NCBI GenBank assembly: GCA_963848295.1
Contig: CAWKDB010000011.1
Coordinates: 672,001 to 736,000, forward strand
Direction of reading: 5' to 3'
DNA: 64,000 nt
Source: an uncultured delta proteobacterium
Lineage (GTDB): Bacteria > Myxococcota_A > Polyangia > Haliangiales > Haliangiaceae
The notes beneath the pieces were generated by a model. That model saw only the letters and a list, made by a program, of their open reading frames with translations, did no database searches and was not told the origin of the DNA. The position numbers were made by a program, and so were the translations under genes. Each line of letters opens with the position of its first letter. Position 1 is the stretch's first letter. Positions 25,621 to 27,205 of the stretch are shown one piece after another.

Positions 25621-25941
25621 TTAGTGCGTGAGGCGCCAGAGCATCGCGCGCACCTGGTCGAGCACCTCGTCGACGTGCGCGAAGTCCGCCGGGGTGATGT
25701 AGCCGCGCGCCTCGGCGATGCGAAGCGCTGCGGTGAGCTCGCCGGCGCTGCCGGCGGCTCGGCGATACAGATCGGGGCGATCGAGCCCGACGCGCGCGCG
25801 ACCTTCGGCGAGGTTGAGCGCGACGCTCTCGGAGGCGCGCACGATCTCGTCGGCGAGGGATTTGCGCCGGCGGCGAACTTTGGGCTCGAGCGGTTCGAGG
25901 CGCGCGATGACGGCGAGTGCGGATTCGAGGGCGATGAACAT
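25621..25941 (-). CDS. Four-helix-bundle protein (23S rRNA IVS / Avd-like family), copy 1
   Basis: LADEIVRASESVALNLAEG...RRAAGSAGE motif typical of the family; GGAG RBS before ATG 25941. Confidence 0.9.
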   Translation of the reverse strand: MFIALESALAVIARLEPLEPKVRRRRKSLADEIVRASESVALNLAEGRARVGLDRPDLYRRAAGSAGELTAALRIAEARGYITPADFAHVDEVLDQVRAMLWRLTH

Positions 25942-25954
25942 GGTTGGCTCCAAG

Positions 25955-26150
25955 GGTTCGTGGGCGGCGTTCGTTCGTTCGCCGTCAAGCGCCGCAGCGC
26001 GCCGGGCCCGTGACGAGCGCGGCGTCGGCCCACCGCAGGCGTCGGTCGATCAACTCCGCGGCGGCCGACCGCATACGTCGATGGTCTCAGCGCTCGGCGC
26101 GGGACGGGCGCGCAAGCGGCGCGACGGCGAACGAACGCCGCCCACGAACC
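25955..26150 (-). ncRNA. Putative structured leader RNA of four-helix-bundle copy 1
   Basis: Inverted arms 25955-25986 and 26123-26150 (28 bp with a 4-nt bulge); nested stems; core shared with 26519..26712. Confidence 0.55.
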
Positions 26151-26167
26151 GAATGCGAGCGAGATCA

Positions 26168-26486
26168 TTGCCGCTGTCGCTTGCCGCTGTCGCTTGCCGC
26201 TGTCGCTTGCCGCTGACCGCTGACCGCTGACCGCTGCCACTGCGGCTGACGCTGCCGCTGACCGCTGCTGCTGACCGCTGACCGCTGCCGCCGCCGCTGA
26301 CCGCCGCCGCTGACCGCTGCTGCTGACCGCTGACCGCTGCCGCCGCCGCTGACCGCTGACCGCTGCCGCTGACCGCTGACCGCTGACCGCTGACCGCTGA
26401 CCGCTGCTGCTGACCGCTGCTGCTGCTGCTGCCGCCGCTGACCGCTGACCGCTGACCGCTGACCGCTACCGCTACCGCTACCGCTA
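26168..26486. repeat. Compound tandem-repeat array (TTGCCGCTGTCGC x3, CCGCTGA heptamers, CCGCTG/CCGCTA hexamers)
   Basis: Directly visible low-complexity array between the two divergent four-helix-bundle cassettes. Confidence 0.95.
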
Positions 26487-26518
26487 TCCTCGAACGACGC
26501 CGCGTCTCGCTGAGTCTC

Positions 26519-26712
26519 GGGCGGCGCGCCGTCGTCGTCGCCCCTGGCCGCTCGCGCGCTCGCGCCTCGCCGAGCGCCGAGAACACCGACGCCTGCGAAC
26601 GGCCGCCGCGAAGTTGATCGACCGACGCGTGAGATCGCCGGGCGCGGCGCTCGTCACGGCGCGTGCGCGCTTGGCGGCCGACGGGGCGAACGACGACGAC
26701 GACGCACCGCCC
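26519..26712 (+). ncRNA. Putative structured leader RNA of four-helix-bundle copy 2
   Basis: Arm gggcggcgcgccgtcgtcgtcgcccctggccgc (26519-26551) pairs imperfectly with gcggccgacggggcgaacgacgacgacgacgcaccgccc (26674-26712); core cggccgccgcg(a/g)agttgatcgaccgacgc shared with copy 1. Confidence 0.55.
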
Positions 26713-26728
26713 TCACCCAGGAGAACTT

Positions 26729-27052
26729 ATGGCTTTCGATGCTCTCGAAGTTTCGCTCACGATGCTCCGCCAGCTCGCCCCGCTCGAGTCGAAGCTGAAG
26801 CGCCACCGGAAATCGCTTGCCGACGAAGTGGTCCGCGCCGGCGAGAGCGTCGCGCTGAATATCAGCGAGGGCCGCGCGCGCGTCGGCCTCGATCGGCCCG
26901 ACTTCTATCGCCGCGCCGCCGGCAGCGCGAACGAGCTCACCACCGCGCTCCGCATCGCCGAGGCGCGCGGCATCATCACAACCGCCGACCTCGCCGCGAT
27001 CGAACCGCTCCTCGATCGCATTCGCGCGATGCTGTGGCGGCTCACGCACTGA
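26729..27052 (+). CDS. Four-helix-bundle protein (23S rRNA IVS / Avd-like family), copy 2
   Basis: LADEVVRAGESVALNISEG...RRAAGSANE; AGGAG RBS; roughly two-thirds identical to copy 1 by eye. Confidence 0.9.
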   Translation: MAFDALEVSLTMLRQLAPLESKLKRHRKSLADEVVRAGESVALNISEGRARVGLDRPDFYRRAAGSANELTTALRIAEARGIITTADLAAIEPLLDRIRAMLWRLTH

Positions 27053-27055
27053 TGC

Positions 27056-27205
27056 GACCGCTGCCGCTGTCGCTGCCGCTGACCGCTGCCGTCGCCGCTG
27101 ACCGCTGCCGCTGCCGCTGCCGCTGACCGCTGCCGTCGCCGCTGACCGCTGCCGTCGCCGCTGCCGCTGCCGCTGACCGCTGCCGGGCTGCCGCTGACCG
27201 CCGCC
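27056..27205. repeat. CCGCTG/CCGCTGA tandem-repeat array downstream of four-helix-bundle copy 2
   Basis: Same motif and orientation as 26168..26486; fills the gap up to the romR stop. Confidence 0.93.

Follow-up and report, generated by a model that had tools for sequence, protein, structure and literature searches.

We analyzed a stretch of 64,000 nucleotides (the window), in which a block of small features lies between two genes on the minus strand, namely valS at 22614-25427, which is identified by its sequence motifs, and, at 27208-28200, a gene for a receiver-domain protein (PF00072) that we take to be RomR. The block holds two divergent genes for four-helix-bundle proteins, both matching PF05635/TIGR02436, and each stands behind a hairpin that is directed into it. 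Specifically, gene 1 (25621..25941, minus strand, 106 aa) is preceded by hairpin 1 (25955..26150, minus strand, ~195 nt), and gene 2 (26729..27052, plus strand, 107 aa) by hairpin 2 (26505..26725, plus strand, main arms at 26519-26712). A central hexamer/heptamer array of ~317 bp (26169..26485), reading CGGCAG/CGGTCAG on the minus strand, separates the hairpins, and an outer array of ~150 bp with the same plus-strand units (27056..27206) extends as far as the RomR-like gene's stop codon; both arrays carry their CCGCTG/CCGCTGA units on one strand. This layout agrees with the initial annotation, which had described two divergent ~106-aa paralogs each behind a hairpin, a central CCGCTG(A) array followed by a second one in the same orientation, and co-oriented neighbors on either side, except that gene 2 is corrected to start at 26729 and to encode 107 aa. 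On the gene 1 side there is no outer array. The trailer 3' of gene 1 (25460..25620, minus strand) has no similar stretch anywhere else in the source genome, and the true end of the element on this side is somewhere within 25460-25620.

A repeat scan of the block returned the arrays, the hairpins and the gene pair and nothing further, and scans for sigma-70 promoters and terminators found none. A reading of the block arrays as coding Gly-X repeats was ruled out, since they mix 6- and 7-mers. The proteins of genes 1 and 2 share 71% identity, and the two hairpins are 75% alike across 194 nt. Hairpin 1 has perfect outer arms of 23 nt and conserved core helices that enclose a 69-nt inner domain, and the covariance model matched it at 25970-26140 with 105 bits. 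The folding z-scores against 200 shuffles were -8.3 for hairpin 1 and -3.0 for hairpin 2; when hairpin 2 was folded as DNA, the minus strand folded better (z of -5.5 versus -3.4). The outermost helix of hairpin 2 is predicted to cover the ribosome-binding site. In one DNA sequencing run, 7% of the words were present, and no contig ran across the block.

To place the block in its genomic context, we searched 81 genomes of the genus for valS and compared the 30 best loci, one of them being the source genome's own. The adjacency of romR and valS holds in this genus, and none of the 29 relatives' valS loci carried the four-helix gene or the hairpin. The romR-valS gap spanned 15 to 1039 bp and was at most 140 bp in 19 of the 26 loci where the end of the RomR-like gene was placeable, all of which belong to other species, so that the exact junction is unreadable. 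The proposal that the block is an insertion was thus borne out. A picture in which relatives share the block by vertical descent with no empty alleles, and in which other four-helix genes stand without leader and arrays, was not what we found. In the source genome, the covariance model identified 23 hairpins, every one of them adjoining a four-helix gene, and 23 family genes have both hairpin and array. Of 31 PF05635 matches there, 22 belong to this family; the other nine have no hairpin, and eight of these have short arrays as judged by eye. The family is distributed over three contigs and comprises 11 divergent pairs, of which one has a truncated gene, in addition to a single intact copy and a remnant. 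The back-to-back pair described initially is not a local accident, the pair being the usual unit here.

The earlier description of a non-autonomous, multicopy unit that travels with its arrays and has no enzyme of its own also held up, and the mobility of the cassette is well supported and in our judgment highly probable. As for the manner of insertion, words shared at the two ends were not longer than random in six elements of the source genome and six of relatives, for which the end positions used are approximate. No terminal inverted repeats were found at the outer ends, which lie inside variable arrays.

The arrays are a regular part of the four-helix cassettes. An array of period 6/7 lies upstream of 23 of 23 paralogs, versus 22 of 3000 random 400-nt windows, and a downstream array accompanies 14 of the 23 genes. 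Across the 11 cassettes, all arrays have their CGG-based units on a single strand, although one self-similar run scored on both strands. When neighboring units were compared in nine central arrays (315 unit pairs), they differed by 0-2.5% at the first four positions (CGGC) and by 44-46% at the last two, where it should be kept in mind that the phase was set on CGG and only the fourth base is fully unanchored. A ring-shaped binding protein would presumably favor such a constant core at constant intervals. Among relatives, an array lies upstream of 52 of 72 hairpins of the four-helix type versus 0 of 23 of those associated with HNH genes (described below), indicating that the arrays belong to the four-helix gene and not to the hairpin. 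Note that the source genome has 103 stretches of period 6/7, most of which are not beside a cassette; among the latter are some of CGGC type, such as those at C2:877748 and C11:435529.

We next consider the protein. Genes 1 and 2 scored 47.6 and 49.8 bits against PF05635 (cut-off 33.8) and 47.7 and 50.7 bits against TIGR02436 (cut-off 24), and a 75%-identical protein occurs in a Haliangiales bacterium. The predicted fold has four helices (pLDDT 94), and that of gene 2 matches Xcc0516, BT_0352 and Avd, with TM scores of 0.84-0.86 to 2GSC and 2RLD and ~0.8 to Avd; the closer matches are thus the non-DGR proteins Xcc0516 and BT_0352. By analogy with the solved homologs, the protein is likely to form a pentameric ring. 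The copies fall into groups A and B, within which genes are 90-99% identical, and dN/dS was 0.124 among nine A copies and 0.162 among ten B copies (the truncated copy was left out), indicating that the four-helix copies are under purifying selection. Distances between leaders did not correlate with those between genes, either within or between partners, and the fraction of incompatible site pairs rose from 0.31-0.39 below 30 nt to 0.59-0.70 above 250 nt, so that the copies exchange sequence and are mosaics, a signal to which assembly polishing may contribute. The four hairpin types of the source genome cluster in the hairpin tree with 97/91 support, and their proteins are 25-38% different.

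The hairpin is a covarying, family-restricted structure. The spacing of two core motifs is 67-74 nt in 46 sequences, whereas in four sequences of a short class it is 36-37 nt. In 28 sequences, 87% of cells were paired and 21 of 33 pairs showed double changes, where the structure was derived from these same sequences, which are related; none of 500 shuffles scored as high, and slid controls reached 27-59%. A search of Rfam gave a single 27-bit match, to a microRNA model with a gathering score of 197, and no meaningful family. The exact pattern matched in 60 of 91 genomes of the genus, some of the single matches being due to chance (a reversed control gave 3 matches), and a stricter pattern matched in 13 of the 54 further family genomes and in 1 of 296 genomes from elsewhere, the latter match being unconfirmed; this distribution in relatives rests on exact patterns, which miss variants. 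Note that the pattern tallies include the unpublished genomes G010 or G066, while the locus-level counts (the sets of 57, 27, 28 and 131) do not. Pattern matches in metagenome and viral contigs were mostly chance, as the arm filter was passed by 8 of 120 and 1 of 34, respectively, and four of these nine failed the covariance model. A generic inverted-repeat scan missed even known hairpins.

The hairpin also shows a marked strand bias. Mismatches on the gene strand comprised 290 C-T versus 20 A-G, with pyrimidine-rich unpaired positions, and the strand opposite the gene folded better in 45 of 57 hairpins as RNA and in 53 of 57 as DNA; the mismatches cannot be counted as independent events, and the folding energy is another expression of this signal. 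A foot motif is present on the antisense strand in 30 of 57 hairpins, where it would presumably form tandem G-A pairs.

Some hairpins lie at loci without a four-helix gene. We dropped an early reading of these as gene-free 'solo' hairpins once a common ORF appeared further along. This shared ORF of 380-430 aa matched HNH profiles in 26 of 29 sequences and DUF222-like profiles in 13 of 29 at E 0.01, mostly under the Pfam cut-offs; His and Cys residues are invariant in the 29 sequences, and a structural comparison gave a weak resemblance to the DNA-binding domains of ParB/Noc (E about 0.1). Altogether, 330 loci reduced to 131 distinct hairpins, of which 78 were associated with four-helix genes, 34 with HNH genes, 2 with both and 11 with neither, and 6 loci were too short, a tally that is biased by the way in which the loci were fetched. 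The hairpins always point inward at the HNH gene (36 ahead, 0 behind). The 34 of HNH type lie 264-1143 nt from the gene, 21 on its strand and 13 on the opposite one, at its 3' end. The initial annotation had taken the hairpin mainly for the leader RNA of the four-helix gene, which is not supported, given that it also stands beside HNH genes, at the 3' end and on the opposite strand in 13 of 34 cases, and that its antisense strand folds better.

We then took HNH loci irrespective of hairpins, using the best one from each of 27 genomes. Six of the 27 carried a hairpin, all pointing inward, versus 0 of 29 valS controls, and the other 21 had no hairpin inside 1.5 kb. In genome G023, 11 of 13 HNH genes had a pattern match inside about 2 kb, as judged by eye. 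The source genome has two intact-looking HNH copies (403 and 414 aa), neither with a hairpin. Inward hairpin pairs bracket the HNH gene at L364, L367 and L383, and weakly at L389, and they bracket convergent four-helix pairs in G104, G063, G077, G018 and G068. Furthermore, a composite of array, hairpin, four-helix gene and HNH gene occurs at four sites in two species (G017 and G024), 82-87% identical over 1.8-2.3 kb; only the G017 copy (at G017:C36) is whole, while in the other three either the hairpin or the four-helix gene is damaged or truncated. On the hairpin tree, 7-8 changes of cargo were needed, at least 2-3 of them forced by strong branches. Across 91 genomes, hairpin and HNH counts were not significantly correlated (rho 0.18, p 0.085), and HNH genes were present in 19 of 22 hairpin-rich genomes versus 54 of 69 others. 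At E 1e-20, no HNH gene was found in G053, G063 and G085, each with at least three hairpins, and G053 has several divergent pairs that are 84-95% identical.

Further arrangements were seen at single loci. At L304 (G047:C99:81709-87717), inward hairpins bracket ~6 kb with an HNH gene and three tyrosine-recombinase matches. In a metagenome contig (L171:311-802), a hairpin and a hexamer array precede a GxxExxY (PD-(D/E)XK) nuclease gene, which makes a third cargo. L286 (G005:C74:152969-154082) has two inward hairpins around an internal inverted duplication, no four-helix or HNH gene, and tandemly duplicated outer ends. The DUF222-HNH genes at L419, L341 and L346 are accompanied by short palindromes, CCCACGTGGG or CCCATGGG, which are putative binding sites; one such palindrome lies inside the hairpin of the composite element and none in the cassette of the block. 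A circular permutation, in which divergent and convergent pairs would be two openings of one circle, found no support, as the arrays flanking the convergent pairs of G104 differ in unit.

The reading that we favor, tentatively and at somewhat less than an even chance, is that the cassette is non-autonomous mobile DNA whose hairpin end is recognized in trans by a DUF222-like HNH nuclease. The hairpin would fold on the strand opposite the gene, as single-stranded DNA or as transcript, and the nuclease would bind it by means of a ParB-like helix-turn-helix region and introduce a nick at that site. Copying of the cassette to new intergenic sites, and homogenization of existing copies, would then be the work of host recombination, which would account for the mosaics and the lack of target duplications. 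The four-helix ring would recognize the CGGC cores that recur at regular intervals in its own cassette, and such binding would maintain selection on the gene as well as on the array grammar. We infer that the nuclease is the driver of the cassette; the HNH gene could also be a guest that inserts beside hairpins. A broader claim, which we regard as possible though doubtful, is that of a class of mobile elements with a strand-specific 195-nt hairpin end, DUF222-HNH nicking nucleases and a four-helix ring reading CGGC-spaced arrays, existing in a full form (hairpin-HNH-hairpin), a composite form (array-hairpin-four-helix-HNH) and a passenger form (paired four-helix genes).

Another explanation dispenses with the nuclease: the hairpin would be a cis-regulatory leader that silences the translation of read-through transcripts, the cassette would have spread and become homogenized by host recombination between the direct-repeat arrays, and HNH genes would have captured the hairpin. 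The one-strand orientation of the arrays of all 11 cassettes, the mosaic copies, the cassette-bearing genomes without an HNH match and the target duplication not above random are consistent with this, as is the ribosome-binding site, predicted (with no shuffled control) to be buried in 13 of 17 leaders, which would fit an RNA role too. However, the empty romR-valS sites have no CGGC array to recombine with, hairpins at the 3' ends of HNH genes (13 of 34) cannot be leaders, and the strand bias favors the non-coding strand. We consider this explanation unlikely.

It is less probable still that the hairpin is a single-stranded DNA substrate of host RAYT-like HUH (Y1) transposases, as in REPINs, with both gene types as passengers. 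Y1 genes are available (9 in the source genome and 8-23 in five relatives), and they occur in 3 distinct hairpin loci among 179 searched, but no meaningful match to the hairpin was found in 20 Y1 loci (the highest score was 26.5 bits), and the Y1 genes of the source genome have an upstream repeat of their own that is unrelated. The long, strand-specific hairpin of fixed inner length is what such a substrate would look like; on the other hand, few hairpins lack an adjoining gene (11 of 131), and there are none of this kind in the source genome. Finally, a retro-element, in which cassette RNA and the Avd-like protein recruit a group II intron RT and arrays arise from copying slippage, is improbable: the Avd-like fold (TM about 0.8), the three RT genes of the source genome and the selection on dispersed copies, which suggests action in cis, speak for it, but the RT link considered in the initial annotation was not supported (a search with the three RTs of the source genome gave 0 RT matches in 179 hairpin-bearing loci), the unit is a two-way pair without detected target duplications, the closer structural matches are non-DGR proteins, and plain slippage does not give a fixed-core array grammar.

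Taken with known systems, the element works most like the REPIN family with a different enzyme and cargo, and it departs in defining features from IVS, DGR, REPIN, MITE and integron cassettes. Like REPINs with their RAYT transposases (PMC3116915), the hairpins are extragenic and of fixed geometry, non-autonomous, present in many copies and inverted around an enzyme gene; the flanked enzyme here is a DUF222-like HNH nuclease instead of an HUH Y1 transposase, and the hairpin mostly carries a gene and measures ~195 nt with internal conserved loops. The ORF-bearing 23S rRNA IVS (Coxiella S23p; PMC4990558) is likewise a selfish insert with a PF05635/TIGR02436 protein and a long stem beside the ORF. 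However, the cassette is intergenic (between valS and the response regulator) without an rRNA match, its gene lies outside the hairpin, which ends before the start codon, and not in a loop, its genes occur as pairs, its arrays are direct, its 23 copies are under purifying selection, and its hairpin is common to HNH genes. Avd is essential for DGR retrohoming (PMC10053308), and it has the same fold (PDB 4DWL, 8UB7), but identity is 12-13% and the cassette has no RT nearby.

The mycobacterial REP13E12 is a DUF222-HNH repeat. Repeats of this type resemble our elements in their multicopy DUF222-like plus HNH gene, whereas hairpin ends or passenger derivatives were not found described for them and the cassette of the block lacks an HNH gene. 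MITEs and IS4-type mobile insertion cassettes are non-autonomous and may carry a passenger gene, as the cassette does, but the latter has no outer terminal inverted repeats or target duplication. Integron attC sites have purine-rich unpaired bases on the non-coding strand, a property shared by the cassette hairpin. However, attC sites follow each gene of a tandem array that is served by an integrase, whereas the hairpin lies upstream of genes in inverted pairs, and integrase genes were present at 1 of 179 loci. The literature searched, in which most subscription journals were outside coverage, held no description of the hairpin cassette or the HNH link; PMC6006769 contained none of the relevant terms and PMC5524665 merely lists the gene. 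We conclude that the cassette is real and mobile and that it has apparently not been described before.

The source genome (G000) also contains other repetitive elements. A second four-helix family has hexamer arrays in inverted orientation that are enclosed by short terminal inverted repeats, with 10-bp target duplications containing CTAG (C2:270975-271536, C10:3467443-3468120, C10:4408257-4408375 and C2:797060-797610); it has a gene-free miniature form, and its ends, in our estimation, resemble IS4-family ends. In the window, positions 48884-50230 (minus strand) hold a fragment of this family joined to a group II intron RT gene that is truncated, and similar fusions or intron insertions occur at C10:2647170, C10:4056510, C2:436753 and C10:3467990, suggesting that the intron targets the second four-helix element. 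Multicopy RAYT-like Y1 genes, at C2:1374062-1375067 and about 10 other sites, are accompanied by their own structured repeat of 165 nt upstream and a 17-nt motif downstream, both of them conserved. In addition, window positions 28842-29128 hold five near-perfect in-frame 57-nt tandem repeats within a 664-aa ORF that looks like an arginyl-tRNA synthetase and has no Pfam match.

The hairpin family itself is narrow in distribution. The genes that it joins, those of the four-helix-bundle (23S IVS-type) and DUF222-HNH families, are common, multicopy and unexplained, and one conserved hairpin links them. If true, the hairpin/DUF222-HNH class would provide the first mechanism for these two large orphan families together. 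The sharp array grammar, in which CGGC is constant, two bases vary freely and the period is six, and the hairpin provide concrete substrates for binding and nicking, so that the spread of these genes and the role of the Avd-like ring outside DGRs become directly testable. Furthermore, a nuclease working on a portable hairpin to mobilize passenger genes could find use as a tool.
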